Shown here piece by piece: positions 2,509 to 53,121 of a stretch of 64,000 nucleotides of DNA. The stretch spans positions 408,593 to 472,592 of the forward strand of contig NZ_CP007142.1 of the NCBI RefSeq assembly GCF_000940805.1, in the 5' to 3' direction. This stretch comes from Gynuella sunshinyii YC6258 (lineage in GTDB: Bacteria; Pseudomonadota; Gammaproteobacteria; Pseudomonadales; Natronospirillaceae). Below the pieces are notes generated by a model. That model made no database searches. It had not been told where the DNA came from and saw only the letters and a program-made list of their open reading frames with translations. A program made the position numbers and the translations under genes. Every line of letters starts with the position of its first letter. The first letter of the stretch is position 1.

Positions 2509-2919
2509 TGAAAATATGTATGCCAGACTGCGCTTATAGTGAGAACATACTTTAAGACTTCTTCAAATATTTGAAGATAGCTTCATTCTTATTTCCTGTT
2601 TCAGTCAGATCTGCATGACCTTAAAATGCGTTGGCTAAATCCCTGCCTGTTTTTGTTTTGGCCAACTGAAATTTTGCAAAAAATGTGAACTGGTTAACAT
2701 CACAAAAGAAATTAATAGCCATCTATTAGGCATTCGTTTTAGAAACTGGAAGAAGTATTTGAAAAAGTCCATATATCCTTAATATGGGATATACAGTATA
2801 AATATTTACATTATACGGTTACATTATCTAATACTATCTACAGACAGGAGTCGTAGCCTCAGGAACCTCTGAACAACGGCTTTAGGATTCAGAGCATGCT
2901 CTGCCCCCCGGAGATTCAT

Positions 2920-5076
2920 ATGCAACAGAAAATAGCTTCTTTAAGTGTTAAAACAGCCTGGATATTATCCGCTGTGATGACTCTTACTGCCTGCACACTT
3001 AGTGGTGAGAGTAGCGATACCATTCAAAATATTGGGAAACCGAGTCCAATCAAAAGCCCAGTACCGACCATCACTCTGAATGGCAGCAGTAATATACAAA
3101 TTGCGGCTGGAAACAACTTCGAAGACCCGGGTGCGACAGCTTACGACGACCAGGATGGTGACCTGACAGGTTTTATCAATACCAAATCCGAGGTGAACAC
3201 CGCTGTTCCCGGACACTATAACATCGACTATTCCGTCACCGACTCCAACAAAAATACCGTATCTGTCTCCCGCACGGTTACCGTAGCCAAAAAGGGTGAT
3301 AACTACTATGTCGACTGGATTAAAGATTTTAGCCTGCCAGCTCAGGATAGTAATGGCTGGTCAGTTCTGACCCCTTCCAAAGACTCCAAAATAATGTATG
3401 TCAGCAACGATGGGAATGACGAAACAGCTAAAGTTTATACTCCAGACGACTCAACTGTTGGCAACGATGTTTTCAATCCTACTGGCGCAATTAAGCCCTA
3501 TGCCAGCATCGAAGCAGCGTTAGACCAACTACGACCTGGCAGCCCTGACTATGTTTTGCTTAAACGTGGCGATACCTGGGAAAGCCCTGAGGTAAACATT
3601 AAAGTTCATGGCCGCTCAGTTCAGGAAAAAGCGGTTTTAAGTGCATACGGTGACTTGGCAGATAACCGACCACTCATAAAAAACTCTGGAGCAATTCTGA
3701 ATAAAAGTGGATATCTGGCTATTGTTGGAATTCATTTTCAGGCCAGCAAACGTAACCCCAGCTCCAGCGATTTTGTTGGCTTTGACAAGGTCGATGACAC
3801 CAAAGGAATTAATGCGGCTTTATTCAATGATTATGGTGGTTTGCTGATCGAAGACTGTTGGTTTGAGTGGTTCGACAATAACTCTATTCAGTCATTTACA
3901 TTTGATAAGAATAATAATTTTTTGACCATTAAAGATATTATTGTTCGACGCAATATTTTTAATAATAACTATTCTACTGCGGCCCATTCCCAGGGTTTGT
4001 ATTCGGCATATACATCCATGCTACTGGAAGAAAATGTCTTTGATCACAATGGCTGGTATCAACAAGGTGACGGCAGTACTAAGAAAGATGGAAAAGCCAC
4101 AATGTTCAATCACAACACCTATTTCCCGGAAGCCCAGGGCTCTGTTTTTCGCAACAATATTTTTTTAAGAGCCTCAAGTATGGGTAACAAGTTCACGTCC
4201 AACTCTGAAGACTCGGAAGGCAGCAATAGTATTAAGGCCTGGAACATCCTGGTTGATAACAATTTTTATGCAGAGGGGGAAATTGGTATCAGTCTGGGAG
4301 GAAATAAAGATCAGGATGATGGGCCACGCTGGGAAAATATAATAGTCGTTAATAATGTCTTAACAGCAATTGGCAGGACGTTCCCAACGAATCGAACTTT
4401 AGGTTGGGGTATAGGCATCAGTGACTGGAAGAATGGACTGGTACAGAACAATCTGATGTTTAACTGGGGCCAGGATGATAATAAAAGTGGTGACTATAAA
4501 AACGTCTATGCCATTGACAGCAAAGGTCATGTGACCAATACCATCATTAATTACAATATTGCCTATGGACTTGTCACTGGTACAGCGGTCATCAGCTTTT
4601 CTGATCAGGGTGAAAAAGAGTTTGTCGCTCAGGCCAGTAACCATATTACCTTTACAAATAACCAAATCACTTTGCTTAAAGATTCAGGTGGCCGCATTAT
4701 GGCCTATGATATACAACCGAAAGCACAGAACTTTGCGAATAACGATTATCATTTCGACACCAACGATGCTTATTGGTTTCGTGCAACGGATAAGTACATC
4801 TGGTCAGAACTGAAAAGTAATCGGGATATTGATTTTGCTGGTTATCAAAGCATTAGTGAAGACAACACATCTATTCAGAATCGCCAATCCTACCCCGCCC
4901 CCAATCGAACGATTTCCGACTATCTGAAAGATAAGAATATTGACTCAACCGCCAATGCTACTACTGAAATGAATATTCTGGTCAATCTCCTGAAAACGCA
5001 GAGAAGGGGAAACTGGGATCAAAAGTTAACAGCAGGTGCGATCAATAACTATTTCCGGGAAGGATTTTCCCGTTAA
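2920..5076 (+). CDS. Lipoprotein, paralog B: lipobox signal, DUF5011-type Ig-like domain, then a right-handed parallel beta-helix. Putative polysaccharide lyase or glycosidase.
   Basis: ATG at 2920 is preceded by GGAG 8 nt upstream. Signal peptide MQQKIASLSVKTAWILSAVMTLTAC contains a lipobox (LTAC). The PGATAYDDQDGDLT motif indicates a DUF5011/Ig-like domain. The remainder is Asn-rich beta-helix repeats. Confidence 0.8.
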   Translation: MQQKIASLSVKTAWILSAVMTLTACTLSGESSDTIQNIGKPSPIKSPVPTITLNGSSNIQIAAGNNFEDPGATAYDDQDGDLTGFINTKSEVNTAVPGHYNIDYSVTDSNKNTVSVSRTVTVAKKGDNYYVDWIKDFSLPAQDSNGWSVLTPSKDSKIMYVSNDGNDETAKVYTPDDSTVGNDVFNPTGAIKPYASIEAALDQLRPGSPDYVLLKRGDTWESPEVNIKVHGRSVQEKAVLSAYGDLADNRPLIKNSGAILNKSGYLAIVGIHFQASKRNPSSSDFVGFDKVDDTKGINAALFNDYGGLLIEDCWFEWFDNNSIQSFTFDKNNNFLTIKDIIVRRNIFNNNYSTAAHSQGLYSAYTSMLLEENVFDHNGWYQQGDGSTKKDGKATMFNHNTYFPEAQGSVFRNNIFLRASSMGNKFTSNSEDSEGSNSIKAWNILVDNNFYAEGEIGISLGGNKDQDDGPRWENIIVVNNVLTAIGRTFPTNRTLGWGIGISDWKNGLVQNNLMFNWGQDDNKSGDYKNVYAIDSKGHVTNTIINYNIAYGLVTGTAVISFSDQGEKEFVAQASNHITFTNNQITLLKDSGGRIMAYDIQPKAQNFANNDYHFDTNDAYWFRATDKYIWSELKSNRDIDFAGYQSISEDNTSIQNRQSYPAPNRTISDYLKDKNIDSTANATTEMNILVNLLKTQRRGNWDQKLTAGAINNYFREGFSR

Positions 5077-5512: not shown

Positions 5513-7633
5513 ATGAATTTCAATAACCACAAATACTTACAAACAATATTTTGCTGTGCTCTATTGGCGGCATGCAACTCAGAAAGCGATTCAGGCAAAA
5601 CCAATACTGCCGCTGCACACAGCAGCCAGGGCCCTGAAATTCAACTGACCGGCATTGAAAATATACAACTGCTGGCCGGTAGCGATTTCGTTGATCCCGG
5701 CGCCGTTGCAGAAGATGCTGAGGATGGTGATCTGACATCCAGTATTTCTGTTGATTCGAATCTTGATGTTTCCACCACAGGCAAATACGGTATTACCTAT
5801 ACAGTCGTCGATTCTGATGGTCACGAAGCAACTGTCACACGCACCATTATTGTGGCTGCAGAGTTTGACGATAACTATCATGTCAGCTGGGAAAGCAACT
5901 TTAGCCTCCCCAAACAGGATGCAGACGGCTGGTCAATCTTAATACCCTCATCCAACTCGCGACTGATCTATATTTCAACCACGAGCGGTGACGACAATAC
6001 TGCGAAGGTTTACACGCCCAAGGATAGTGTAATCGGCGGAGACTATCGTAATCCTGCCGGTACGGTTTTAGCGTATAAGACAATGGAAGCCGCTTTCGAA
6101 CAATTAAGAGCCGGAAAACCAGACTACCTGCTGTTTAAGCGCGGAGACACCTTTACTAAAACCCCCGGCTTCGATCTTGCACTTAAAGCCGGTCGTTCAG
6201 CCTCCGAACGACAGGTTCTCACCAGTTATGGACCAGCCACAGAGAGACCTGTGATCGATACCGGTACTGGTTGGGGATTAAACTTCAACAATGCTCCCTA
6301 TTCAGCTGCCGTTGGATTATATGTTGTGGCCAGTGGACGTAACCCGGACCAGGACGGTGATGGCAAGGAGGACCGTGACTTTGACTGGAATTCCATAGGT
6401 CAGGCACTGGGTTTTCGTGGTTTGGATATCGTCGGCCACATACTGATCGAAGATTGCTGGTTCGACTGGTATTCAAGCAACTATTTCCAGTCAACCGATG
6501 ATAACTCCGAGGTGATAGACATTATTTTCAGACGGAACCTGGTGACCAACAATTATGCCGCGGTATCCGGTCAGAACACGCAAGGTATGTACTCCGATAA
6601 TGTTTCATCGTTAATTGAAGAAAACATTTTCGACCACAATGGCTGGTATAAACAGGGTACCGGTAGCGATGACAAAGAAGGTCAGGCTACTTACTACAAC
6701 CACAACATTTATTTTGTAGAACCCAGGAACACGATTGTCAGGAACAATCTGTTTTTGCGTTCATCCAGTATTGGTACCAAGTTCACCTCCAACACAACAT
6801 CCGGGGACAATCAGATCAAAGCCTGGAACCTGTTGGTTGATAACAATCTTTATCTTGAAGGCGAAGTTGGTATTGGTCTGAGCGGTAACAAAGATCAGAA
6901 CAACGGACCAAGATTTCAGCAAATCTACGTAACCAATAATGTGCTGATGAATATAGGCCGAACTCAGCCGTCTAAACGGGATCTTGGCTGGGGGATGGAT
7001 CTGGCTGACTGGAAAGGCGGGCTGGTCAACGGCAACATCTTTGCACACTGGGGACAATACAACGCTCAAAACAATAACAACTATGCCATGTATATAACTG
7101 GCGAGATGTCCAATACAGAGATCAGCAACAACATTATCTATGATATCTACAGCAATCAGGTTCTGGTCAACTTCACCGGATATGACGAAATCGTATCATT
7201 TGATTTTCACCACAATGAAATCCAGGGAAAGGATGCGAACGTTCAGCGACCTGGCCGCCTGTTGCAATATTCTGTTAACAAAGGCACTGGTAATCTGGCT
7301 AATAACTACTACTACTCAGAAGTAGAGCAGGATCACTGGTTTTCCGGGCAAGGTTCTGCTTATTTGACTCTGGATCAGTATCGCAGTTACTCCGGTGACA
7401 CGACATCCATGCCTCAGTCTCGCTCTTATGATGAGCCGGAGCGTTCTATTTCAAGTTATTTGTCCTCTCTCGGGTACGCCTCAGGGTTAAATGTAGATAC
7501 GGAAATGGCAGCGTTAATCGAGTTGTTACTGGCACAACAAAAAGGTAACTGGGACACCAACATAAGTGCTACAGCAATCAACAATTATATTCGCGAAGGA
7601 TTCTGCCTCGAGGGTAACTTCAGCTGCCGCTGA
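5513..7633 (+). CDS. Lipoprotein, paralog C, with the same architecture as paralog B. It is more divergent, roughly 45-50% identical.
   Basis: Lipobox LLAACNS. Ig-like domain motif PGAVAEDAEDGDLT. Conserved EDCWFDWYS and FDHNGWYKQGTGS motifs, and a C-terminal KGNWD...AINNY region shared by all three paralogs. Confidence 0.8.
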   Translation: MNFNNHKYLQTIFCCALLAACNSESDSGKTNTAAAHSSQGPEIQLTGIENIQLLAGSDFVDPGAVAEDAEDGDLTSSISVDSNLDVSTTGKYGITYTVVDSDGHEATVTRTIIVAAEFDDNYHVSWESNFSLPKQDADGWSILIPSSNSRLIYISTTSGDDNTAKVYTPKDSVIGGDYRNPAGTVLAYKTMEAAFEQLRAGKPDYLLFKRGDTFTKTPGFDLALKAGRSASERQVLTSYGPATERPVIDTGTGWGLNFNNAPYSAAVGLYVVASGRNPDQDGDGKEDRDFDWNSIGQALGFRGLDIVGHILIEDCWFDWYSSNYFQSTDDNSEVIDIIFRRNLVTNNYAAVSGQNTQGMYSDNVSSLIEENIFDHNGWYKQGTGSDDKEGQATYYNHNIYFVEPRNTIVRNNLFLRSSSIGTKFTSNTTSGDNQIKAWNLLVDNNLYLEGEVGIGLSGNKDQNNGPRFQQIYVTNNVLMNIGRTQPSKRDLGWGMDLADWKGGLVNGNIFAHWGQYNAQNNNNYAMYITGEMSNTEISNNIIYDIYSNQVLVNFTGYDEIVSFDFHHNEIQGKDANVQRPGRLLQYSVNKGTGNLANNYYYSEVEQDHWFSGQGSAYLTLDQYRSYSGDTTSMPQSRSYDEPERSISSYLSSLGYASGLNVDTEMAALIELLLAQQKGNWDTNISATAINNYIREGFCLEGNFSCR

Positions 7634-20932: not shown

Positions 20933-21091
20933 CCTTCTAGCATATGATACGGGCTATGGCAGGCCCGCTTTTTGGGACATGGCGCTATCGTTCTCAAAGG
21001 GATTCTGTACTACACTTCTGCGCTACCCATGAAATCGGGTTTTCATCCCGAATACTCAATGATCGGACTTAAGCTCACATAATGGAGAAGT

Positions 21092-21769
21092 ATGAGTATG
21101 ACCCACACAATTCCCGGAGTGGAATTCATCGACAATGCCAATCAGCGAACCCCTTGTGTACTGGTGCTGGATACATCCAGTTCGATGAGCGGGGAACCTA
21201 TCAAACAACTCAATACCGGTCTTAAGGTCTTTGAAGAACAGCTGAAAAGTGATCCGGTTGCCGCTTTGCGGGTACAGGTACTGGTGATTGCCGTCGGTGG
21301 CCACGAAGATGTCACCATCCTGCAACCCTGGACCGATGCGGTGGATTTTTCCGCTCCAACACTCCAGGCCAGCGGCCTGACGCCACTGGGCCAAGGCATG
21401 GCCAAGGCCATGGATGAAATCGACGCCCAGAAAGCACTGTATGACAGCAATGGCATTTCCAGCACCCGTCCCTGGGTCATTATGATTTCTGACGGTTGCC
21501 CGAACGACTATGGCTGGGAAGAGATTGCTGCTCAGTGTCGCGATGCCGAACGCCAGAAAAAAACCGTTATCTTTCCAATCGGCACCGAAGGCGCTGATTT
21601 TGAAGCACTGGGACAGTTCTCCAACAAGACTCCGAAAAAACTCAAAGGTCTGCATTTCACCGAATTATTCATCTGGCTCAGCCGCAGCATGGCCACCGTT
21701 TCTGCCAGCGTGCCGGGCGAAAAGGTGGCATTACCCGATACCAACAGCTGGTCTGAAATAGAGGTTTAA
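21092..21769 (+). CDS. von Willebrand factor A domain protein (TerY-like)
   Basis: MIDAS motif DTSSSM (DxSxS) near the N-terminus, an alpha/beta Rossmann-like vWA fold, and length 225 aa. Confidence 0.8.
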   Translation: MSMTHTIPGVEFIDNANQRTPCVLVLDTSSSMSGEPIKQLNTGLKVFEEQLKSDPVAALRVQVLVIAVGGHEDVTILQPWTDAVDFSAPTLQASGLTPLGQGMAKAMDEIDAQKALYDSNGISSTRPWVIMISDGCPNDYGWEEIAAQCRDAERQKKTVIFPIGTEGADFEALGQFSNKTPKKLKGLHFTELFIWLSRSMATVSASVPGEKVALPDTNSWSEIEV

Positions 21770-21771
21770 GC

Positions 21772-22509
21772 ATGGGATGGCAGTATGCCGCTGCATCTGT
21801 CACCGGGGCCTCCCATGTACAGCAGCAGCTTCCCTGCCAGGATGCCTGGCAGATTCAGCAGACCGACAGCGGCATCATCGCCTGTGTGGCCGATGGCGCC
21901 GGTTCCGCGGCACGCTCAGAGATTGGGTCGAGAACCTTAGTGGATCACCTGTGTCAGACGCTGGCTCCACAACTGGATCAGCTAATCAGCCATACCGATG
22001 GCGCTCAGATGCTTGTCGATGCCATTGACGAAGTCCGCCAGGAACTTAGCGAACTGGGCCCAATCGCCGAATTCCATGCCACCTTATGCGGCCTGATAGC
22101 AACCGCTCATGGCCAAATGGTATTTCATATCGGCGATGGCGTCGTTCTGGGTATCAACCCCGGCGACTGGCAGGACTACGTGATCAGCGAGCCGGAAAAT
22201 GGCGAATATGCGGATATGACCTATTTTTTTACCCTGCCGGGTTGGCAACAACACCTGCGCATCTGGTGCCCGCATAAACCCTACCCCTTATGGTTCCTGA
22301 TGTCAGACGGAGTCAGCGGCTTTGCCACGACGGGTACTCAGACAGCAGGACCTCAGGAGAGCTTTCTCAAACCGGTACACCAGTACCTGTCGACCGTTTC
22401 CAGCGATCAGGGCAGCGAGGCGCTGAACGGTACACTTCAGGATAAACGGGCTGCAGCCATCAGTCACGACGATAAAACCCTGGCCTGGCTCTATATGAAC
22501 CGGAATTAA
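21772..22509 (+). CDS. PP2C-family Ser/Thr protein phosphatase (PP2C_2 type)
   Basis: CVADGAGSAARSEIGS signature of bacterial PP2C-like phosphatases. Only 2 nt separate it from the vWA gene. Confidence 0.75.
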   Translation: MGWQYAAASVTGASHVQQQLPCQDAWQIQQTDSGIIACVADGAGSAARSEIGSRTLVDHLCQTLAPQLDQLISHTDGAQMLVDAIDEVRQELSELGPIAEFHATLCGLIATAHGQMVFHIGDGVVLGINPGDWQDYVISEPENGEYADMTYFFTLPGWQQHLRIWCPHKPYPLWFLMSDGVSGFATTGTQTAGPQESFLKPVHQYLSTVSSDQGSEALNGTLQDKRAAAISHDDKTLAWLYMNRN

Positions 22510-22535
22510 TCAGCGTATTTCAACACAGCGGCAGT

Positions 22536-25310
22536 ATGTCCAACACTCTCTATTGTCATTACCCCGATGGCCGGAAGGAAACCATCCGCCACCCTGCCAA
22601 GCCCCTTAATCAGGGCGCTGACGGCGCTATCTTTGCCAGTACTGACCGACGTTATGCGCTCAAGATCTATCACCACCCGGATAAAGATCCCCGACGTGAA
22701 CACAAACTGTGGCAGATGATCGAACACACGCCACCGGCACAGCAAGGTGTTACTTTTGCCTGGCCGCTGGCCATACTCAAAACACATCGGGGTAAATTTG
22801 TCGGCTATCTGATGCCGTTGCTGAACTTCAAACATGAGGTTCAGCTGGAACAGTTGCTTTCGGCCCGGGCTCGTCAGCAGTCCAAACTGCCGGAAAGCTA
22901 CCTGTTTCGACTGAATGCCGCCATTGAACTGGTTCGCTGTGTCGAGGCGCTCCATCGCAGTGGTCATGCCATCATCGATTTCAAACCGGTGAATGTCATG
23001 GTCAACCGTCGGACTGCCGCCATTTCAATCGTCGACTGTGATGGCTTCTTCATTCGTGGTTCACATGATCAGTTTCCCGGTCACCAGTACACCGCCGGGT
23101 ATATTGCACCGGAAGCCCATAACAACAAACTGCCGCCCGATCAACTGGATCAGGCCCAGGACCTGTTTGCTCTGGCCGTTATTGTTTTCCAACTGCTCAA
23201 TAATGGAATTCACCCGTTCCAGGGCGTTCCCAAGCCCGGAACCAAACTGCCCACGGATAACCAGGCCCGCATCAGTGCAGCGCTATATCCCTACGGTGAA
23301 CAACCGCACCCCCGGATAGGTCCATCCCCCTGGAGTCTTCATCGCCACTTTCCTGTCAACCTGCGGGGGGCATTGGAATCATCGCTGATTGGCCCCAAAA
23401 GACATTCGGCGCAGCAATGGCTGCAACTGCTGGAGACCTTGCGCGAACACATCAGTCAGTGTCAAAAAACAGCGGATCACTACTACTGGGGAGAAGAATG
23501 CCCCCATTGCCGCCAAAGCGCCGGACAAACACAACAGTTGGCAGCAACGGCCAAAGCAGCCGCCCAACGAAAACCCCGCAAGCCGACCATCAAAACCCGG
23601 CCGACCAGACACACCGCGGCTCAACCGACCCCTCCGCCAGCACCAACCGCCACGATATCTACCGGTTTTGCCTGGTTCATGATAGTCGCCGTCATACTGG
23701 TGGGTATCATTTTCTTTAACAACGATCACTCTGATGACAGCCGCTACCCAAGTCCGGATGACACCGCCGATGAGGTATTTAAAGACTCCTATTCCGAAAT
23801 GCTGATTCCCGCTTCGGATCTTAACTTTCTCATCCTTGATCCCGCTAAAACGACCACCGAGACGGTCGCTTATACGGACGATGTTGTACGCATGACCTAT
23901 GACGACGGACAACCGGACTCAATATTTTACCAGTTGCCGGAATTCAGCAGCGCCAGTGCAATACCCTACCTCAAGCGCAAGGCAATCAGCCTGAATACCA
24001 CCACCACAATGATCAGCGGCGCTTATGATATTGGTATCCGTGACTTCAACGATCACAACCGGATGCTTGGACAGAATAACAACCCGAAAAACAACATTCT
24101 CATGCTATCGGACTGGCAATATGACGAAGCCACCGCAACGTCTTACACGTATTTGTGTATCCGCCATAACGATGGCAGCGGTATTGGAGGGGCTTTGCCG
24201 ATATGCCAGCACGTGTTACAGAGCAAAACCAACGGATCAGCACGATTTGAATTTACAGAACAGCCGGACACAGATACCTCCACCGCCGCGCAGGCTGGTG
24301 GCTGGCGTTATGACCTGAGCAACAATGGTCGTTACCTGGCCATGGCCAGCAATCGAACGCTGATCGTCTACAAAACCAACAACCCCAAACAGCCACTGGT
24401 TCAGCAATTGTTGCCGGCAGATCAGCTGCAACAATCCATCAACCGCATCATCATCGATGACAGCGGTGAACAAATCTATCTGGCCCTGACAGCACCCGCC
24501 AAACCGAATGAAGCTTTTTCCGGTACCGTCCTGGAACTGCAAAAAACCGGACAGGAGTACCAGATCAGCACCGACTTCTCGACCCTGACAGACCCCAACA
24601 CCCTGTCAGGCATTGACGTTGCCATCAATGCCGATGGCACCATCATGGCCATTGGCGAATACACGGATTCGTATCTGAACACCACCGACTATACCTCTCT
24701 GGGAAGTCCTGTCGATGTCCTGGAAGGCTTTGCCAGAATCAGCCTGTGGCAACGAACCTCTGAAGGCTGGCAGCAGATCTCCACGGTCCACGAACTGAAA
24801 TCCGCGAACGTTACCATCAACGGGGAAGCGTTTTACACCGACAAACCACCCAGAGAACTGATCACCGTTCCGCAGACTATCAGTGCCTACTATTTCAGAG
24901 CATCCTGGTTTGGGGGAGGACAAGGAAGCATTCAATCCCATGCCGCCTTCAATCGTCATTTTCAGCTGAGCCGTGATGGCAAAATACTGATGTCAGGACT
25001 GACTCTAAATGGGCAGAACAACCGCCAGAACAGCACCATGACCGTCAGCACCCATCTCTACGGGATCACCGGATCTGACGTCGCGCTCGCCGCCATTGCG
25101 AAACTTGCAGTCTCCCGGCAGTACGATCAAAACTACCTGCTGGTCGATGCCCGCATGTCGAAAGACGCTGCCACGATCATTTTCAATACCACCACCAATG
25201 TCAGATCTGTCTCCCGGCAAATTCAACAAACCACGCGGTTTGATTTATTTGACTTAAATTCCCTGAGCCAACCGGAATCTGTTACCACTGACGGAGGATC
25301 AACGTATTAA
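22536..25310 (+). CDS. Ser/Thr protein kinase with a zinc-ribbon-like motif, a proline-rich linker, one TM helix and a roughly 540-aa extracytoplasmic C-terminal domain
   Basis: Kinase motifs: RYALKIY (VAIK-like), IIDFKPVNVMV (catalytic loop) and GYIAPEA (APE). Then CPHCRQ, a proline-rich PTPPPAPTA linker, the TM helix FAWFMIVAVILVGIIFF, and a long Ser/Thr/Asn-rich domain. Confidence 0.8.
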   Translation: MSNTLYCHYPDGRKETIRHPAKPLNQGADGAIFASTDRRYALKIYHHPDKDPRREHKLWQMIEHTPPAQQGVTFAWPLAILKTHRGKFVGYLMPLLNFKHEVQLEQLLSARARQQSKLPESYLFRLNAAIELVRCVEALHRSGHAIIDFKPVNVMVNRRTAAISIVDCDGFFIRGSHDQFPGHQYTAGYIAPEAHNNKLPPDQLDQAQDLFALAVIVFQLLNNGIHPFQGVPKPGTKLPTDNQARISAALYPYGEQPHPRIGPSPWSLHRHFPVNLRGALESSLIGPKRHSAQQWLQLLETLREHISQCQKTADHYYWGEECPHCRQSAGQTQQLAATAKAAAQRKPRKPTIKTRPTRHTAAQPTPPPAPTATISTGFAWFMIVAVILVGIIFFNNDHSDDSRYPSPDDTADEVFKDSYSEMLIPASDLNFLILDPAKTTTETVAYTDDVVRMTYDDGQPDSIFYQLPEFSSASAIPYLKRKAISLNTTTTMISGAYDIGIRDFNDHNRMLGQNNNPKNNILMLSDWQYDEATATSYTYLCIRHNDGSGIGGALPICQHVLQSKTNGSARFEFTEQPDTDTSTAAQAGGWRYDLSNNGRYLAMASNRTLIVYKTNNPKQPLVQQLLPADQLQQSINRIIIDDSGEQIYLALTAPAKPNEAFSGTVLELQKTGQEYQISTDFSTLTDPNTLSGIDVAINADGTIMAIGEYTDSYLNTTDYTSLGSPVDVLEGFARISLWQRTSEGWQQISTVHELKSANVTINGEAFYTDKPPRELITVPQTISAYYFRASWFGGGQGSIQSHAAFNRHFQLSRDGKILMSGLTLNGQNNRQNSTMTVSTHLYGITGSDVALAAIAKLAVSRQYDQNYLLVDARMSKDAATIIFNTTTNVRSVSRQIQQTTRFDLFDLNSLSQPESVTTDGGSTY

Positions 25311-25409
25311 TTGGACGATAGGCATGCCCCAATTAAGAGTCGGACGATCAGGCGACCAAAGGTTGCCTATTTGAAGTATTAAAGCAGTTGAAAACTGATA
25401 TCAATCACC

Positions 25410-25446
25410 TTGCCGTTCAATTTCTCATTTCGAAATTGAACGGCAA
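25410..25446. terminator. Perfect 15-bp inverted repeat (TTGCCGTTCAATTTC / GAAATTGAACGGCAA) between the convergent kinase and rtcA genes
   Basis: Sits between two convergent genes. It is a strong hairpin without a clear U-tract on either side. Confidence 0.5.
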
Positions 25447-25452
25447 ATTATC

Positions 25453-26451
25453 CTATAACCGTAGTATATGGTCCTGAAAACTCATTTCCCTGCCGGTCAC
25501 ACGGGCGATAATCTGACGATTGGTCTCGCCATGATCCGACAAACCATCGCAACGAAACTCACCACCACCGGCCACCAGCATCGGCAGCATGATCTGATCC
25601 GCCAGATACTCATCCAGCACGGCATCACTTTGCAGATAACGGTTCACCTGCTTCAGCAGATTGCCGGCAACTTTTTCGGCACTGAGACGTGGTCGCCCTA
25701 ATTCGGTCAGGCAAATACGCGTCTTCTCAAAATGCAGATCAACAGCCAACAGGTTACCCGGCGAACTGCTTTTGGGTTGCCGGATCCGGGTTTCAGTGAC
25801 CGCCATCGGAGCACTGCGACAAAATACCTGTAGCTCACGTTCAGCGACCTGATTGCTCAGGCCGACTTCATAGGCACTGAGGCGACAGTTCAGCAGTTCA
25901 CCGCGCTGCAACCGGCTGATCGGTGACAGCACTGACGGTTTGATCGTTGCCTGCCAGCAACCTCCACCAGCCGGCATGAATCCCCAACGTTGAACATCCA
26001 GCTCAATCTGTGCGCCCATTTCCCGCAATAACGGCAAAAATGAACGCTTCAGATAGGTCAGGGGCGGCGCCATCGGGTTATGAGTGCCACCACGAAACTG
26101 CACCGTTGACGCGCCTTTGGCCTGCAGTAACGGCAGCGCGATGGTCTGGAATACCAGCGTGGTGCTGCCGGCACTGCCGACATCAAAATGGTAATCGCCG
26201 GATGTCACCGCGCCCGGCACGAAACGCAGTCGCGTTGACCCCAGTTCAGCCCCCTCAACCCAGGCACCACTGATAGTCTGAGCCGCCAGCACACAGGTCA
26301 GGTGCTGACGCATCAATCCCGGCTTGGGCCGGCCGCCACGAATGTGATGAATCTCAATCCCTTTGCCGGTCAGCATCGCCAGGGTCAGCGCCGAACGCAA
26401 AATCTGGCCGCCACCTTCACCCTGGCGACCATCCAGTTCAATCATGTCCAC
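25453..26451 (-). CDS. rtcA: RNA 3'-terminal phosphate cyclase
   Basis: LDGRQGEGGGQILRSALTLAML...GGRPKPGLMRQHL is closely similar to E. coli RtcA. Confidence 0.9.
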   Translation of the reverse strand: MDMIELDGRQGEGGGQILRSALTLAMLTGKGIEIHHIRGGRPKPGLMRQHLTCVLAAQTISGAWVEGAELGSTRLRFVPGAVTSGDYHFDVGSAGSTTLVFQTIALPLLQAKGASTVQFRGGTHNPMAPPLTYLKRSFLPLLREMGAQIELDVQRWGFMPAGGGCWQATIKPSVLSPISRLQRGELLNCRLSAYEVGLSNQVAERELQVFCRSAPMAVTETRIRQPKSSSPGNLLAVDLHFEKTRICLTELGRPRLSAEKVAGNLLKQVNRYLQSDAVLDEYLADQIMLPMLVAGGGEFRCDGLSDHGETNRQIIARVTGREMSFQDHILRL

Positions 26452-26458: not shown

Positions 26459-27676
26459 TTATCCTTTTACACATACCACTTGTCTCAGGGTATGAACCAC
26501 TTCCACCAGGTCAGACTGAGCCGCCATAACCGCATCAATATTTTTATAAGCGCTGGGGGTCTCATCCACCACCGCCGCATCTTTTCGGCATTCCACATGG
26601 GCCGTCGCCAATGCATGCTCTTCAACACTCACCACTTTCTTGGCCTGGGTACGAGACATCACCCGTCCGGCTCCATGGCTACAACTGCAGAAGCTTTCCG
26701 CATTACCCTTACCCCGGACGATAAATGAGCGCGCACCCATGCTACCGGGAATAATTCCCAATTGACCTTCACGGGCGCTCACAGCACCTTTACGGGTCAA
26801 CCAGACATTTTTGTCGTAGTGGTGCTCTTTCTGCACGTAGTTATGGTGACAATTGACTGCCTCGCGCTCGACGATAACCGGTTTGTTCAGGGTAACCGCC
26901 AGCGCTTTCAAAGCCCGTCCCATCATCACCTGACGATTAATACGGGCAAAATCCTGAGCCCAGTCGACCGCTTCAACATAGTCGTTGAAATAGTCTGTTC
27001 CTTCGACCAGATACGACAAATCCCGGTCAGGCAACTGAATGAAGAAACGTTCCATTTCCTGTTTAGCCAGGCGGATAAAGTGTTCACCGATCCGGTTACC
27101 CACACCGCGGGAGCCGGAATGCAGCATGATCCAGACATCATCCTGTTCATCCAGACACACTTCAATAAAGTGATTGCCGGTACCCAACGTTCCCAGGTGT
27201 TTTACATTATTAGTGTTTTTTAATACGGGATGCTTATCGCACAACACCGTAAAACGATCAGCCAGCTGCTGTTGCCAGAATTGACCGACATCCTCCGGAA
27301 TATCATGCCAGGCACCCGGATCACGTTTTCGGGCTTTTCCTCCACCATGGGGAATGGCACGCTCCAGATTGCTACGCAGTTCTTTCAATGAGTCCGGCAA
27401 CTGATCGGCCCGGACATCGGTTTTGACGGCCATCATGCCACAGCCGATATCCACACCCACCGCTGCGGGAATGATGGCACCGGTGGTTGGAATCACCGAG
27501 CCGATAGTCGCTCCCTTACCAAAATGCACATCCGGCATTGCGGCCACCCATTTATGGATGAACGGTAGCGAGGCGAGGTTTTTCAATTGTTGCCGGGCTC
27601 CGTCCTCAAAAGGTACGCCGACGGTCCAGCTTTTTACCGGAACCCCTTTTTCCACGTTGATCACTTCAATGGCCAT
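26459..27676 (-). CDS. rtcB: RtcB RNA ligase (3'-phosphate/5'-OH RNA-splicing ligase)
   Basis: Length 405 aa. Metal-binding and GMP-histidine region motifs MLHSGSRGVGN and NCHHNY are present. Lies immediately upstream of rtcA. Confidence 0.9.
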   Translation of the reverse strand: MAIEVINVEKGVPVKSWTVGVPFEDGARQQLKNLASLPFIHKWVAAMPDVHFGKGATIGSVIPTTGAIIPAAVGVDIGCGMMAVKTDVRADQLPDSLKELRSNLERAIPHGGGKARKRDPGAWHDIPEDVGQFWQQQLADRFTVLCDKHPVLKNTNNVKHLGTLGTGNHFIEVCLDEQDDVWIMLHSGSRGVGNRIGEHFIRLAKQEMERFFIQLPDRDLSYLVEGTDYFNDYVEAVDWAQDFARINRQVMMGRALKALAVTLNKPVIVEREAVNCHHNYVQKEHHYDKNVWLTRKGAVSAREGQLGIIPGSMGARSFIVRGKGNAESFCSCSHGAGRVMSRTQAKKVVSVEEHALATAHVECRKDAAVVDETPSAYKNIDAVMAAQSDLVEVVHTLRQVVCVKG

Positions 27677-28015: not shown

Positions 28016-28471
28016 ATGCATGAAACCCGCACAAATATTCAGCCCTTCTCAGACAGTCAGTGGCGCACTCTCAGCCTGAGCCCGGTGATTATATTTTTAC
28101 TGGTCGCCGCCGCCGACGGACATATCGATAACCGGGAAAAGCAGCAGTTTGTGGAATTACTGAAAGAGACAGAGAAGCGCCGTTCAGACAGATTGAAAAC
28201 ACTGCTTCAGGACGTGGCCCGGCAACTGACCGATTTATTGATGGTCGTGGCCAGCGAAACATTGGATATGATTGACGTGATAACGGAAACCGTCGATCTG
28301 GTGGAACAGCATCTTGAGCCCGAAGAAGCCCTGCTCTTCAAGCAGGACCTGCTCGACTTTGCCACTGAAATTGCCCGCAGCTCAGGCGGCCTGACCAGCG
28401 GCACAATTGATCGTCACGAGCAGCAGACGCTGGACCAAATCAGTCACTATCTGCGGCTCAATCTGTCCTGA
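28016..28471 (+). CDS. TerB-like (tellurite-resistance TerB / DjlA N-terminal-like) domain protein
   Basis: Helical protein of 151 aa with the VAAADGHIDNREKQQFVELL motif that resembles the TerB family. Assignment made by eye only. Confidence 0.4.
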   Translation: MHETRTNIQPFSDSQWRTLSLSPVIIFLLVAAADGHIDNREKQQFVELLKETEKRRSDRLKTLLQDVARQLTDLLMVVASETLDMIDVITETVDLVEQHLEPEEALLFKQDLLDFATEIARSSGGLTSGTIDRHEQQTLDQISHYLRLNLS

Positions 28472-28497
28472 CGATCAGCCATGGAGCGCGACGATGA

Positions 28498-29139
28498 TCA
28501 GTCGCGCAATCCCCATTCGGTTTCGACATCCTCCAGATCGCCCACATACGACAAGTCCACGCATTCCAGACTGAACATGTAGCGCACGTCTTCGATCAAC
28601 TCGCGGGCATCCAGATCCAACAAATGCCCCATCACCATGCCATTGAGCTCATAGTAGCGGGGATACGGTTTACGCATGTACTGGCGAAACATCTCCAGCA
28701 CTTCGCTTCTATGAGAAGGAAATGCCATGGCTATTTCCGCCAGCGAGTTCATCGAAATCGCATAAGCAAACTGATCCTCACCCTCCCGTTGCAGATACTC
28801 AGACAAAGGATTGATGGCTGCCGGTCCGATCAATGCCATTACCTTGTCCAGTTCAGTGATGGCAAAATCATCGCCACTGAAGCGGTCAAAGTTGTTGATC
28901 AGACTGTCTATCGCAGTCTCGGCCCGAAGTTGTCCCAGGGTCCGCCAGGCATGTACCGGTGCCCAGGTGGCAGGATCTTTGGGCTCAAGAGTATCGAAAT
29001 GTTCATCGCATACGACTGCGATCAGATCGGCAATATCAGACTCATCAAACCCATACTGCTCGGGGTATTGGGGCCATGGTGTTGAAATATGAGCTTCTCC
29101 CAGCTCGATCAGAGCCTGGATTTTTGGATTAGAGTGCAT
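28498..29139 (-). CDS. Conserved hypothetical acidic helical protein (possibly DUF1186-like)
   Basis: Clean ORF of 213 aa. No motif I can assign confidently. Confidence 0.45.
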   Translation of the reverse strand: MHSNPKIQALIELGEAHISTPWPQYPEQYGFDESDIADLIAVVCDEHFDTLEPKDPATWAPVHAWRTLGQLRAETAIDSLINNFDRFSGDDFAITELDKVMALIGPAAINPLSEYLQREGEDQFAYAISMNSLAEIAMAFPSHRSEVLEMFRQYMRKPYPRYYELNGMVMGHLLDLDARELIEDVRYMFSLECVDLSYVGDLEDVETEWGLRD

Positions 29140-30951: not shown

Positions 30952-30967
30952 TGGCACAGAGCTTGGA
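30952..30967 (+). promoter_or_regulatory. Candidate sigma54 (-24/-12) promoter TGGCAC-agagc-TTGGA, reading toward the tRNA-like RNA and SPFH/NTase genes
   Basis: Perfect -24 TGGCAC with correct spacing. The -12 element is TTGG rather than the consensus TTGC. Divergent from rtcR, matching the position where RtcR-activated promoters lie in enterobacteria. Confidence 0.35.
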
Positions 30968-31076
30968 ATAACAATATTGAATGTGATCACTGGCAGCGGC
31001 GCGGGTTCTGTACACCCGCCTGGCATCCCTCTCCATGAGACCGGATGTACCGACAGTATCGGACAGTACATTCACA

Positions 31077-31152
31077 CGTTTGATAGCTCATACGGTAGAG
31101 CAGTTGACTCATAATCAATGGGTAACGGGTTCGAATCCCGTTCAAACATCCA
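31077..31152 (+). ncRNA. tRNA-like RNA with a CAT (Met-type) anticodon. It has a 76-nt canonical cloverleaf with an encoded CCA, a C1·A72 mismatch and an AU-rich acceptor stem.
   Basis: Manual fold: acceptor 31077-83/31142-48 (6 of 7 pairs); D-stem GCTC/GAGC; anticodon stem GTTGA/TCAAT with loop CTCATAA; T-stem ACGGG/CCCGT with T-loop TTCGAAT. The anticodon and T arm closely resemble elongator tRNA-Met. Confidence 0.55.
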
Positions 31153-31418
31153 TGGTAAAGCCCTTCCAGGCTCAGGGTTCAAATCCCTCTTTAAATATAA
31201 ACGGGCGCAAGCCCAAAGCGGTGTGCCGCGTTTATCAGACCCGTTGTCGATAAACCCGGGCATACCCGGACCCGGGAGCTGAAATGCCAGGGGCGCTGGC
31301 TGACGCCGGTGGGGGCCAGGGATGGTCGTAGATTCAGGTGTAATCCCCACCGGCCTCAGACAGTCAACCGGCATTCCCTCCCGGCATCTGATCAATATGG
31401 ATCAAAAAAGGAGTCGTT

Positions 31419-32582
31419 ATGAAATTGTGGACCTCCATCAGCGTGGCTGATGATGAAAGAGTTTTATTGTACCGGGACCGTCAGCTGGTCCGGGTACTGC
31501 ACAGCGGTCGCTATCGCATGTTTGATCCCGGCCGGCGCTACAGCACAGAAACCCTGTCGCTGCGCGAAGCCGGCGTCAAACATGGCAACCTTGAAGTACT
31601 GCTGACCCTGGAGATTTTCCGCGCCGAGGTGGACGTTGAAACCATCGGCCAGGAAGAAGTCGGCATCGTGCGTCTGGATGGACAGGTGAAAGCGGTATTG
31701 GAACCGGGATCGCGCTTTGTCCGCTGGCGCAGCAGTGAGAATCTGACGCTGGAATGCATCGACATTTCCAATAACTACCGCATCGCTCCGGCGTTGCTGG
31801 CGCAATTGGAACGCTCGGGTGTGAACGGCATCGGCAGCCATAAGGCCTGGATGCAGTTGACCGTGCCGGATCAGACACTGGGTCAGCTGTTTGTGGATGG
31901 TCGTCTGGCCGAGACCCTGCCGAGCGGCCGCTATGGTTTCTGGTTGTACAACCGGGAACTCAACACCCAGGTCAGTGACCTGAAGTGGCAATCGGTGGAA
32001 ATCAGCGGTCAGGAAATTCTGACCAGGGACCGGGTCAGCCTGCGGTTGAACCTGAACGCGGTTTACCGCTTCAGCGATGTGGTGAAGTTGCTGTCTCAGG
32101 TGAAAAGCCCTGGTGATTATATCTACCGGCGTTTGCAGCTGGCACTGCGGGAAACGGTCGGTACCCGCACTCTGGATGAGTTGCTGGCGGATAAAAACGC
32201 CATCGCCAAAACCATCACCAAATCGGTCAGCGAGCACTTGCAGGAGATGGGATTCGAACTCGAACAGATTGGTATAAAGGACATCATTCTGCCCGGTGAT
32301 ATGAAAGATATTCTGAATCAGGTGGTGCAGGCTCAGAAAACCGCCGAGGCCAACCTGATCCGCCGGCGGGAAGAGACTGCCGCAACCCGTTCGCTGCAAA
32401 ACACCGCCAGAATGATCGAGGGTAACCCGGTGCTGTTACGCCTGAAGGAACTGGAGGCACTGGAAAAAGTGGCGGATCGGATCGGTCATCTGACCGTATA
32501 CGGAGGGCTCGAAGGGGTCATGAATGGACTGGTATCTCTGACCGGGGCGGTGAAATCCTCCAACGGTCAAACAACCTCATAA
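31419..32582 (+). CDS. SPFH/band-7 (stomatin/HflK-like) domain protein with a roughly 200-aa N-terminal extension and no TM anchor
   Basis: Band-7 core DRVSLRLNLNAVYRFSD...ITKSVSEHLQEMGFELEQIGIKDIILPGDMKDILNQVVQAQKTAEANLIRRREETAATRS followed by a coiled-coil tail. No hydrophobic helix is present. Confidence 0.75.
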   Translation: MKLWTSISVADDERVLLYRDRQLVRVLHSGRYRMFDPGRRYSTETLSLREAGVKHGNLEVLLTLEIFRAEVDVETIGQEEVGIVRLDGQVKAVLEPGSRFVRWRSSENLTLECIDISNNYRIAPALLAQLERSGVNGIGSHKAWMQLTVPDQTLGQLFVDGRLAETLPSGRYGFWLYNRELNTQVSDLKWQSVEISGQEILTRDRVSLRLNLNAVYRFSDVVKLLSQVKSPGDYIYRRLQLALRETVGTRTLDELLADKNAIAKTITKSVSEHLQEMGFELEQIGIKDIILPGDMKDILNQVVQAQKTAEANLIRRREETAATRSLQNTARMIEGNPVLLRLKELEALEKVADRIGHLTVYGGLEGVMNGLVSLTGAVKSSNGQTTS

Positions 32583-32595
32583 CGGGAGACAGACA

Positions 32596-33363
32596 ATGGA
32601 ACAGAGAATCCTTGCAACGTTGGAGCGGATCGAATGGGAATACGGCGTGGATATCCTCTACGCCTGCGAATCCGGCAGTCGCGCCTGGGGCTTTGTCTCA
32701 CCGAACAGCGACTACGATGTCCGCTTCATCTATGTGCATCCACTGGATCACTATTTATCGGTGGGCAGGCAGCGGGATGTGATTGAAGAACCGATTATCG
32801 ATGATCTCGACATCAACGGCTGGGATCTGCGCAAGGCCCTCGGGCTGATGCGCGGCAGTAATCCCAGTCTGCTGGAGTGGCTGCATTCGCCGGTGGTGTA
32901 CCACAGTCGTGAGTGGTTTGAATACGAGCTGCGGGAACTGGCATTGCAAAGCCTGGATCGCCGGGCGTTGTTTCACCACTATCGCTCAATGGCCGGCAAT
33001 GACTGGCGAAAAGTACGCAAAGCCGACCGGGAAGTTCCCCTGAAGCGCTACTTTTACATGCTGCGCACCGCGCTGTGCGCGCTTTGGGTGATGGACCCTG
33101 ACAAACCGGCGATGCCACCGGTGGCATTCGCAGAACTACTGGCGCAAACAGACATGGATGCGGTCGTTCGGGCGACGATCGGGGAGCTGCAAACACTCAA
33201 GGCCAGTCTGGCCGAGAAATGCTCGATCCCCCGAGTCGTGGTGCTGGACGACTTTCTCGCCGATGCGTTTGCCCGTATGGATGCGGCCAGTCCGGAGAAA
33301 AGAGCGCCGATGCCACTGGCACCATTCGATCAACTGCTGATCAACACCGTAAGGGCGGCCTGA
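32596..33363 (+). CDS. Pol-beta-superfamily nucleotidyltransferase (the RNA-repair-associated NTase family)
   Basis: ESGSRAWGFVSPNSDYDVRFIY matches the hG[GS]...[DE]h[DE]h NTase signature. Length 255 aa. Lies 13 nt downstream of the SPFH gene. Confidence 0.65.
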   Translation: MEQRILATLERIEWEYGVDILYACESGSRAWGFVSPNSDYDVRFIYVHPLDHYLSVGRQRDVIEEPIIDDLDINGWDLRKALGLMRGSNPSLLEWLHSPVVYHSREWFEYELRELALQSLDRRALFHHYRSMAGNDWRKVRKADREVPLKRYFYMLRTALCALWVMDPDKPAMPPVAFAELLAQTDMDAVVRATIGELQTLKASLAEKCSIPRVVVLDDFLADAFARMDAASPEKRAPMPLAPFDQLLINTVRAA

Positions 33364-50209: not shown

Positions 50210-50318
50210 ATAGATTAAGGGATTAAGCGTGTTTGATGCAGGGATGCATCGCTTTGAAGCATTCAATAGTATGACAGTCCGAAGGCGTCATATATGTCCT
50301 TTTTATATCTCCCTCTGG

Positions 50319-50651
50319 TTAGAAATTCAAAAACTTTAATGCAGCCAAAGCGATACAAATCACTATCGATGCAGCACTTAATCTATTCAGTATATTTAGA
50401 CTTTTTGCAATAGACTTCACTTTTTCATCTTCAAACTTTAAATAAGGCTTTACATTGAAGTATCTAATACGATTAAGGTGTAACCTAAAGGCATTATCAT
50501 CATACAGTCCAAATTCTATCAATTGGCTATCATCCAGCTTTTCAATAGCCAAAAAGAACTCGCGTTGCAATGAGTTATATTTATTGACAAGAAAAATCGA
50601 TATTACTAAAAACATTAAGAAAAATATGCTTATCATACCTATCACCGTCAA
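50319..50651 (-). CDS. Small membrane protein (two TM helices) in the AT-rich island
   Basis: 110-aa ORF with low-GC codon usage. Confidence 0.4.
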   Translation of the reverse strand: MTVIGMISIFFLMFLVISIFLVNKYNSLQREFFLAIEKLDDSQLIEFGLYDDNAFRLHLNRIRYFNVKPYLKFEDEKVKSIAKSLNILNRLSAASIVICIALAALKFLNF

Positions 50652-50654
50652 AAC

Positions 50655-51110
50655 TTCTGATCAAAGCCAACCGCAAGCATAGTCCCACTGCTACCAAATA
50701 CTAATCCAACACCGCCTTTGAAATTCGCGCCGCCAGAGCCAAGAGTACCACTAACTTTTGTACCAAAGATTCCTCTAGCAGGAGCGGTCCACGAAAATTT
50801 ATCGGTAATGTTTAGATCTGACGGACCTCTCTCTCCGATTGGAAAGTTATAATCAACTGTTAACGATAAGCTGCGCCTTTGATTAACCCCGATCCAGCAA
50901 AGAACTTTGCATCACCAGCCCCATTAATAGAAAAATCAACCCTATAACCAGCATTGTTTTTTCTAAGAGCTAAGGAGCCTGTAAAGGAATAACGATCGAG
51001 CTCGTCAAGAGAATCTACAAACCTAAATAGATCCTCTCTCACGCCTCCATCTAGCATTCGATTCCAGAAAAAGCCTGCAAATGAGTCTTCAGATACCTGA
51101 GGCAAACTAG
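50655..51110 (-). pseudogene. Disrupted outer-membrane beta-barrel (OmpA/OmpW-like porin family) gene, frameshifted
   Basis: Two frames give ...FAGSGLIKGAAYR and ...GTLGSGGANFKGGVGLVFGSSGTMLAVGFDQKF*, which is Gly-rich with a C-terminal Phe typical of OMPs. No intact start or signal peptide. Confidence 0.5.
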
Positions 51111-51141
51111 GCCAGCTCCACCTGCTCTTTTGTACATTAAA

Positions 51142-51195
51142 GATTCAAGTTTACGGGTGTATTTTTTATTTTCATTCTTTTTATTTTCAAATTTA
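51142..51195. repeat. Island repeat copy 1 (degenerate): GATTCAAGTTTACGGGTGTATTTTTTATTTTCATTCTTTTTATTTTC
   Basis: One of five copies of the GAATTCAAGTTTATGGATGTCCTTTTTAT... family. Confidence 0.6.
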
Positions 51196-51312
51196 TGAAT
51201 TCAAATAATGGGTGCCCTTTTTATTTCTTATAGCACAAGATTGGCCAAGTTATTTACAGAGATATGGGTTCTAACCGTTGGTAATGGTTTAAGATCTCCT
51301 TAAGTAGCCACA

Positions 51313-51360
51313 ATTCAAGTTTTTGGGTGTTATTTTTGTTTTCCATTCTCATCACCCAAA
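51313..51360. repeat. Island repeat copy 2 (degenerate)
   Basis: AATTCAAGTTTTTGGGTGTTATTTTTGTTTTCCATTCTC. Confidence 0.55.
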
Positions 51361-51484
51361 GATATCCACGACTTGCATCTTTTTATAGCTGCTAACAGGG
51401 TAGCTATCCAATATGAACTTCTCTAAATCATTCGACAGTCTCTGAAAATATGGTGTAGCACTTGTGCTGGTACCATCATGGATT

Positions 51485-51510
51485 AACAAGTTTATGGATG
51501 TCCTATTTAT
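51485..51510. repeat. Island repeat copy 3 (core only), 11 nt beyond the 3' end of lipoprotein gene 51521..51928
   Basis: AACAAGTTTATGGATGTCCTATTTAT. Confidence 0.6.
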
Positions 51511-51520
51511 TCACCAATCC

Positions 51521-51928
51521 CTATTCCTTAACAAAACATAAATGTAACTCTGTTTGAAAACAAAGATGTATATTTGGCTCCTTGTTCTTTGACGTTTTTA
51601 CGGCCAAAGTAAACCAATCACCACGAGAGCTTGATATGCCTTTCATAGCCCTAAACTTAAAATTGTAAAAAACAACATCAATTTCAATCACAGAGTCAGA
51701 TGGCGTTTCAACAAACTTCCAAGCGCCTTTTTCTTCTTTAACTTCATTTTCTTCTCGAAATTTGTGTATATATGTACCATCGGCATTTATTTCCAACTTG
51801 TCGGTATCATCCGCGTAATGGGCCAAATAGCTACCATACAATTCTTCAGCATTAAAATACTCTCGTTTAGATCCACATCCTGTGCAAATGGCCATGATCA
51901 AAACAAAAAGGGAAAGGTGAAATTTCAT
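51521..51928 (-). CDS. Lipoprotein (candidate immunity-type protein)
   Basis: Lipobox MKFHLSLFVLIMAICTGCGS. 135 aa. Abuts the upstream 225-aa ORF with no gap. Confidence 0.55.
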   Translation of the reverse strand: MKFHLSLFVLIMAICTGCGSKREYFNAEELYGSYLAHYADDTDKLEINADGTYIHKFREENEVKEEKGAWKFVETPSDSVIEIDVVFYNFKFRAMKGISSSRGDWFTLAVKTSKNKEPNIHLCFQTELHLCFVKE

Positions 51929-52606: not shown

Positions 52607-52625
52607 GTATCCAACTACTAAATCT

Positions 52626-52874: not shown

Positions 52875-53051
52875 AACCCTACACCCAGCATCGCGTTAGT
52901 TACAATAGTATTTGCAGACGCACCTAGTTGAAATAGGTCATATCCAACTATAATATTACCCTGAGTTAATATTGAGATTTTTGTAACCTCAGACCCTAAA
53001 GTCAGAGGTTTTTTTACTAGCGATATTAATTGCACCAGATATCTTTTCTGG

Positions 53052-53108: not shown

Positions 53109-53121
53109 TATTTCGAATCGC

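Follow-up and report, generated by a model that had tools for sequence, protein, structure and literature searches.

Analysis of a 64,000-nucleotide stretch of Gynuella sunshinyii YC6258 DNA (contig NZ_CP007142.1, positions 408,593 to 472,592 of the forward strand; hereafter the window, in whose coordinates all positions are given) indicated that positions 21092-25310 hold three genes, coding for a vWA protein, a PP2C phosphatase and a Ser/Thr kinase, which probably form a chromosomal yegL-pphC-yegI-type TerY-P triad, a self-contained phospho-signalling cassette with boundaries of its own that stands beside the RNA-repair genes rtcBA by accident. The cassette is of a known kind; its unusual feature is the rare, sequence-orphan extracytoplasmic beta-propeller predicted on the kinase. 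The three genes are:

21092-21769, plus strand: gene for a TerY/YegL-type vWA protein of 225 amino acids
21772-22509, plus strand: gene for a PP2C_2 Ser/Thr phosphatase of the PphC/YegK type, 245 amino acids
22536-25310, plus strand: gene for a receptor-type membrane Ser/Thr kinase of the YegI family, 924 amino acids

The list of open reading frames (ORFs) showed the three genes to be co-directional, with gaps of 2 nt between the vWA and PP2C genes and 26 nt between the PP2C and kinase genes. These coordinates match exactly those of an initial annotation made from the letters of the window, which had described the genes as tightly packed and had proposed a Pfam search for VWA, PP2C_2 and Pkinase domains. 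All three domains were assigned: VWA in the 225-residue protein (E 2e-7), PP2C_2 in the 245-residue protein (E 1.6e-39) and Pkinase in the kinase (E 2.5e-8), where the match covered residues 104-232 alone. The VWA and Pkinase scores of 31.9 and 34.1 bits were above the respective cut-offs of 23.8 and 31.7. For the triad NCBIfam returned only weak, sub-threshold matches, including lanthionine synthetase kinase domains, which were uninformative. A look-up of the exact kinase sequence gave no record, and a homology search found the kinase 100% identical to a protein of the marine gammaproteobacterium Gynuella sunshinyii. Comparison of the locus with E. coli genomes by megablast gave no match, and the window is not enterobacterial.

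Comparison with the proteins of E. coli revealed that the vWA protein aligned over its full length with YegL (41% identity, E 6e-56), the phosphatase with PphC (28% identity, E 7e-19) and kinase residues 21-325 with YegI (27% identity over 330 residues, zinc knuckle included, E 2e-22), the last alignment reaching the C-terminal CPxC. The yegL-pphC-yegI cluster, of the COG4245 / COG4248 type, codes for the same three proteins in the same order, the phosphatase belonging to the atypical PP2C_2 group in both; E. coli K-12 differs in that yegJ is inserted between pphC and yegI. Homology also extended to all three members of the archetypal TerY-P triad of IncHI2 tellurite-resistance (ter) plasmids: the vWA protein to TerY (29% identity, E 1e-9 to 5e-9; every plasmid had three paralogues that matched), the phosphatase to the plasmid PP2C (E 3e-8) and the kinase to the plasmid kinase (E 4e-15), from Met1 through to the zinc-binding CPYC. 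The plasmid triad has the same order of vWA, PP2C and Ser/Thr kinase ending in a zinc ribbon, but its proteins are larger and soluble (a TerY-C of 346 amino acids with a metal-binding C-terminal domain, a PP2C of 545 and a kinase of 499), it is set among terW/terX/terY and terZABCDE, and the identity of its proteins to those of Gynuella is only 22-29%.

According to PMC11090510 (after Anantharaman et al. 2012), a TerY-P system consists of a TerY-like vWA protein, a PP2C and a Ser/Thr kinase with a fused C-terminal zinc ribbon. The Gynuella locus has a vWA protein with a metal-ion-dependent adhesion site (MIDAS), a PP2C gene directly downstream and a kinase with a zinc ribbon, and the three genes travel together. 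Judged by its sequence, the triad is a genuine TerY-P cassette of the YegL branch, which is not the branch tested for defence. The triad syntax proposed in the initial annotation was thus supported, both by the homology to the ter-plasmid and YegL/PphC/YegI proteins and by the recurrence of the cassette in 74 of 80 loci.

These 80 loci, one genome per species, were collected by a pattern and tblastn scan, with flanks of up to 10 kb per side where the contig allowed. In tblastn searches with the triad proteins, 74 of them proved to hold all three genes, which in about 70 cases keep both order and strand; the exceptions were mostly short contigs or extra kinase paralogues. The loci span Gamma-, Alpha- and Betaproteobacteria, Rhodothermales, Desulfobacterota and Myxococcota. 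All-against-all clustering of the ORFs of 81 loci yielded no fourth gene common across clades; the other recurrent ORFs were clade-specific neighbours and some minus-strand ORFs that were taken as antisense shadows of the cassette genes. The co-occurrence of the three genes and the lack of a shared fourth gene indicate a self-contained three-gene cassette.

Kinase paralogues of the same family were also seen without a vWA or PP2C match in the available flanks, at L010 (Pseudomonas sp. WN033), L017/L018 (Motilimonas) and L028/L029/L038 (Longimicrobium); the contigs of L018, L028, L029 and L038 are 2-3.5 kb long. Pseudomonas sp. WN033 carries a complete triad (L016) in addition to the solo propeller-kinase (L010).

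Alignment of the vWA homologues revealed that the MIDAS, which the initial annotation had called intact, is complete (D27-T-S29-S-S31, T97 and D134) and conserved: T97 and D134 are invariant among 69 homologues and D27, S29 and S31 are at least 90% conserved. A hydropathy scan found no hydrophobic segment in this protein, which is predicted to be cytoplasmic. Outside the vWA core, a C-terminal tail of the form F-x-W-L-S197-x-S199...S204...W220 is invariant in the same 69 homologues, and its serine cluster S197/S199/S204 is a candidate phospho-acceptor. The vWA protein is also the best-conserved member of the triad: when Gynuella is compared with Marinobacter, Colwellia or Pseudoalteromonas (loci L007-L020), its identity is 72-78% against about 50% for the two enzymes, which points to a strongly constrained interaction. 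In the phosphatase, the acidic metal-binding residues D24, D41-G42, D122-G123, D179-G180 and D233-D234 are present; D179-G180 and D233-D234 are invariant among 72 homologues and the others are at least 90% conserved. The active sites of both proteins therefore look functional and under constraint.

A 199-residue ORF on the minus strand (21056-21655), antisense to the vWA gene, recurs in homologous loci. It is read not as a gene but as a shadow ORF of the vWA coding sequence, which is highly conserved.

The kinase is composed of the following parts:

22536-23525, plus strand: Hanks-type cytoplasmic kinase domain, residues 1-330 (family invariants, structural model and Foldseek)
23460-23510, plus strand: zinc knuckle or zinc ribbon that follows the kinase domain (C309, H315, C322, C325)
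23655-23723, plus strand: sole transmembrane helix, residues about 374-396 (hydropathy and model)
23883-25253, plus strand: seven-bladed, extracytoplasmic beta-propeller of WD40-like fold, residues about 450-906, about 460 residues in all (predicted model, no Pfam match)

The catalytic residues are K43, the catalytic loop I-I-D148-F-K150-P-V-N153 and A191-P-E193. The initial annotation had stated that the kinase keeps its VAIK, catalytic and APE motifs; this stands for the lysine, for the catalytic D, K and N and for APE, but the lysine lies in 'ALK', the H-R of HRD is absent and DFG is replaced by D167-C-D-G-F, an atypical magnesium-binding loop that is invariant in 23 homologues. YegI shares the lack of H-R and the change of DFG to D-x-D (DCD here, DSD in YegI), and both kinases are membrane-anchored; the catalytic loop D-F-K-P-V-N of the Gynuella kinase is nearer to the canonical form than the VGDxxQxS of YegI. 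The four zinc ligands C309, H315, C322 and C325 are invariant in the 23 homologues, and their CxxC aligned to CPWC in YegI and to CPYC in the kinase of the ter plasmid.

A single hydrophobic segment was detected (residues about 374-396), preceded by the K/R-rich RKPRKPTIKTRPTRH and followed by the acidic NDHSDDSRYPSPDDTADE. This positive-inside charge bias predicts an N-in/C-out topology, with the C-terminal 520 residues outside the cytoplasm; the propeller is thus probably periplasmic. Modelling with AlphaFold2 and a 23-sequence alignment gave a kinase domain (residues 1-330) with a block pLDDT (the predicted score of the local distance difference test) mostly of 82-96, followed by a disordered basic linker, a helix at residues 377-395 and an all-beta region at about 450-906. 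In Foldseek the N-terminal part matched protein kinases of the Hanks type at E about 4e-9, M. tuberculosis PknB among them. With the full-length model kinases alone were returned, and the C-terminal region was modelled separately. Two propeller cysteines, C541 and C558, are conserved in the clade; two homologues, P0007 and P0016, have lost both, a joint loss that would fit a disulfide in the oxidising periplasm.

Searches of the C-terminal 485 residues against Pfam at E <= 10 gave no match. An exhaustive phmmer search of the propeller against 1.84 billion representative proteins found seven relatives, six of them kinases of 894-918 amino acids and one a protein of 482 amino acids. By sequence the propeller is confined to a handful of kinases of about 900 amino acids from marine Gammaproteobacteria, and it was seen in Gynuella, Colwellia, Pseudoalteromonas, Marinobacter and a few Pseudomonas. 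The small number of relatives and the lack of a Pfam match mark the propeller as a rare, lineage-specific sensor addition. Remoter members of the kinase family carry other C-terminal modules (ankyrin, Sel1, PDZ, peptidoglycan-binding, TonB_C and LRR), so that a variable tail is normal for the family. The sensor domains of M. tuberculosis PknD and Thermomonospora PkwA have no sequence relationship to the Gynuella propeller; PknD carries an extracellular six-bladed NHL propeller as its sensor and PkwA is a kinase-WD40 protein, and neither is known to belong to a vWA-PP2C triad.

A mechanism for the triad may be sketched from these features and from the E. coli proteins. YegI is an active, Mn/Mg-dependent and autophosphorylating inner-membrane kinase in vitro, for which the DSD loop is essential (10.1101/819920). 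As a PP2C, PphC is active in vitro and dephosphorylates YegI, and YegI in turn phosphorylates PphC in vitro (10.1101/303594, 10.1101/819920). The initial annotation had held that such triads have little experimental characterization; this biochemistry and the phage protection conferred by TerY-P-like modules are in fact published, and the claim stands for the physiological role of the YegL-type triad. In the model, the Gynuella kinase would be a single-pass inner-membrane receptor whose periplasmic propeller perceives an envelope or extracellular cue, and binding of the cue would control kinase activation across the single transmembrane helix. The Hanks-type domain with its D-C-D Mg/Mn loop would autophosphorylate and phosphorylate its partners, for which YegI in vitro is the only precedent, and the PP2C_2 phosphatase would reset the kinase, by analogy with the action of PphC on YegI in vitro. 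The vWA protein could serve as the output or adaptor, its MIDAS-dependent binding of a target being gated by phosphorylation, possibly at S197/S199/S204.

Several points weigh against this reading of the locus. YegI (648 amino acids) is reportedly a two-pass protein with both ends in the cytoplasm and no extracytoplasmic domain, while the 924-residue Gynuella kinase has one hydrophobic segment followed by the propeller of about 460 residues; the YegI-type architecture is thus not shared, and the biology of YegI may not transfer. To our knowledge, no substrate has been described for any YegI-type kinase. Mean pLDDT was 73 for the full-length model and 75.6 for the propeller alone, with several disordered loops, so that the details of the blades are uncertain. 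A weak ribosome-binding site and the 26-nt gap precede the kinase gene, whereas its homologues overlap the phosphatase gene.

The limits of the transcription unit were examined in the flanking sequences, where the following elements were found:

20950-20967, plus strand: terminator-like hairpin and T-run 3' of a LacI-family gene (CGGGCTATGGCAGGCCCG then CTTTTTGGGA)
25350-25368, plus strand: 8-bp G+C-rich hairpin followed by a short T-run
25410-25446: perfect inverted repeat of 15 bp around a 7-nt loop, at a distance of 6 nt from the stop codon of rtcA
25453-26451, minus strand: rtcA (Pfam)
26459-27676, minus strand: rtcB (Pfam)

The hairpin at 20950-20967 marks the predicted 5' boundary of a transcription unit belonging to the triad, the hairpin at 25350-25368 is likely the triad terminator and the inverted repeat at 25410-25446 is likely the end of the convergent rtcBA unit. 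Inside the triad no strong terminator was detected, the in-gene terminator-like matches being stems of 5-6 bp at no more than shuffle frequency. Ribosome-binding sites GGAG and GAGG precede the vWA and PP2C genes. A sigma-70 promoter scan found sites at chance level, and no promoter was assignable to the triad.

The initial annotation had placed the triad immediately next to rtcBA with only a hairpin between them and had given this adjacency a meaning. The adjacency is real, the spacer between the kinase gene and rtcA being 142 nt, but the genes are convergent and the spacer holds two hairpins, the one seen before being the 15-bp inverted repeat. This spacer folded better than 200 of 200 shuffles (z = -3.5). 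This adjacency, the presence of the triad in the same region of a second Gynuella species, the company that TerY-P triads keep with predicted RNA-targeting CoCoNuT systems (PMC11090510) and a TerB-domain gene within the rtc locus would all be compatible with a coupling of the triad to Rtc RNA repair, in which the kinase and phosphatase modulate RtcR, RtcB or RtcA or respond to RNA damage.

Such a coupling is nevertheless extremely improbable. The two units converge and each has a hairpin of its own, and rtcBA has its own sigma-54-like promoter. Searches with tblastn found RtcA and RtcB within 10 kb on either side of the triad at one other locus, that of the sister Gynuella species, and not at the other 79 of the 80 loci; homologues of TerB, DUF1186, Band_7 and RlaP were likewise found near the triad in the sister Gynuella alone. 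Co-occurrence and co-orientation with rtcBA/rtcR are therefore not conserved. Even in the sister species the adjacency is not direct, since a 122-residue ORF and an MFS transporter gene lie between kinase and rtcA, some 2.2 kb in all. Between the two species DNA homology is lost at the kinase gene's 3' end and picks up again inside the 3' end of rtcA, with 184 bp of unrelated sequence here and 2172 bp there. From the convergent units, the separate rtcBA promoter, the presence of rtc genes near one of the 80 loci and the intervening genes in the sister species we concluded that the adjacency is a genus-specific accident of gene order without functional meaning. RtcR, searched for in the same way, likewise matched in the sister Gynuella alone, apart from a weak RtcR-like match in Pseudomonas sp. 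WN033 that was set aside as probably a generic sigma-54 activator.

The self-contained cassette is flanked upstream by an alpha-glucan utilisation operon (amylases, solute-binding protein, permeases and LacI-family regulator) that ends at the hairpin at 20950-20967. Downstream the order is rtcA, rtcB, a TerB-domain gene, a DUF1186 gene and rtcR, then Band_7 and RlaP genes, and further on GntR/aminotransferase, EamA, Na/H exchanger and MacAB-TolC-like efflux genes. One of these genes enters into a rival reading of the triad:

28016-28471, plus strand: TerB-domain gene, 151 amino acids, between rtcB and rtcR

A tellurite or metal-stress (Ter) module, in which the TerY-like vWA protein senses metal via its MIDAS and acts with the nearby TerB-domain protein, would draw on this gene and on the homology that links the vWA protein to TerY paralogues at three places in each ter plasmid. 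It would also accord with the hypothesis of a metal-sensing switch (Anantharaman et al. 2012, as given in PMC11090510). We consider it very unlikely. No TerZ, TerA, TerC, TerD or TerE was found among the window ORFs screened with Pfam, the Gynuella vWA protein lacks the metal-binding extension of TerY-C (225 against 346 amino acids), and among the 80 loci TerB lies near the triad in no other genus. E. coli K-12, moreover, has yegL-pphC-yegI but is not known to carry a ter operon.

The TerB-domain gene and the DUF1186 gene (minus strand, 213 amino acids), which together span 28016-29139 between rtcB and rtcR, are 96-99% conserved in the sister Gynuella and gave no PADLOC match; they may be accessories of this rtc locus. 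A sigma-54-like promoter, TGGCACagagcTTGG (30952-30966, plus strand), is divergent from rtcR and is followed by a non-coding leader of about 450 nt, which contains a tRNA-Met(CAT) call at 31077-31152 (Rfam tRNA, 62 bits) and a second T-arm-like sequence, GGTTCAAATCC. The Band_7/SPFH and RlaP genes follow the leader. This region (30952-33363) recalls the RtcR-controlled rsr-yrlBA-rtcBA operon of Salmonella, in which yrlBA is a tRNA-like Y RNA, but it lacks Ro.

The initial annotation had called the surroundings a typical defence-island neighbourhood. Analysis of the neighbours with Pfam and PADLOC recognised no known defence gene in the flanks, which hold sugar-utilisation, transport, efflux and RNA-repair genes; among 15 neighbouring products submitted to PADLOC, two of them more than 30 kb distant, RtcR alone was matched. 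A defence island is thus not supported. The comparison with published TerY-P profiles that had been proposed was made with the PADLOC models of the TerY-P defence system. The vWA protein did not match the TerY model (PDLC02224) even at E <= 10, the kinase matched STK_OB (PDLC02223) at E 0.0055 only, with 13.6 bits over 50 residues and more weakly than it matched generic kinase models (PglW, PD-T4-6), and the TerY-P phosphatase models found nothing in the triad at E <= 10. The same pattern was obtained with YegL, PphC and YegI of E. coli. Filing of the triad as a TerY-P defence system of the kind described by Gao et al. 2020 was therefore rejected, since by these scans the triad belongs to none of the TerY, STK_OB and phosphatase models and shows only generic kinase similarity. 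The Gao system has the same three domain types in one cassette, but its kinase is fused to an OB fold (PMC11090510), while the Gynuella kinase is fused to a transmembrane helix and a beta-propeller.

These results bear on whether the triad acts in anti-phage defence of the TerY-P class, the kinase sensing infection, perhaps at the envelope via the propeller, and the triad blocking phage development. In its three domains and their gene order the locus agrees with that class, homology links it to the TerY-P archetype, and the patchy multi-phylum distribution fits a mobile cassette. TerY-P-like modules protect against phage (Gao et al. 2020, as cited in PMC11090510 and PMC7699616), T7-like phages among them (PMC7699616), and a TerY-P variant protects P. 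aeruginosa against Autographiviridae (10.1101/2022.08.12.503731); TerY-P triads are also embedded in CoCoNuT restriction systems (PMC11090510). Even so, we regard this role as unlikely here. The PADLOC results speak against it, and the tested systems carry the kinase-OB fusion, which in Gynuella is replaced by the transmembrane helix and propeller. Known defence genes were not detected among the housekeeping and transport genes that flank the triad, and the cassettes of Colwellia, Marinobacter and Hahella have unrelated housekeeping flanks (TetR, Mla, ABC transporter, UvrC and SbcCD genes). Synteny of the locus, furthermore, holds between two Gynuella species, and the ORFs screened included no recognisable integrase or other mobility gene. 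The implied link of a conflict module to RNA repair within a defence island, which would have been the interesting part, is thus unsupported.

A more speculative proposal, to which we attach still less weight, makes the kinase a surface receptor whose propeller detects an envelope event such as phage adsorption, a competitor toxin or envelope damage and whose vWA partner triggers a protective response, possibly in cooperation with the RtcR-controlled RNA-repair locus. If true, this would give the TerY-P systems their first member whose extracellular input is defined, and a handle on the function of YegL-type vWA proteins. For the phospho-signalling cassette as such, a kinase with an obvious extracytoplasmic sensor might ease the finding of the input of the widespread yegL-pphC-yegI/TerY-P cassette, and the invariant serine cluster of the vWA tail offers a concrete substrate hypothesis.

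Elsewhere in the window, two tandem paralogues of about 700 amino acids (2896-5076 and 5513-7633) each carry a bacterial surface Ig-like domain at the N-terminus (PF16403, about 5e-22) and have no other annotation. The G+C content of positions 50001-54000 is 0.37, against about 0.50 around them, with a strongly negative GC skew, and this segment may be horizontally acquired DNA.

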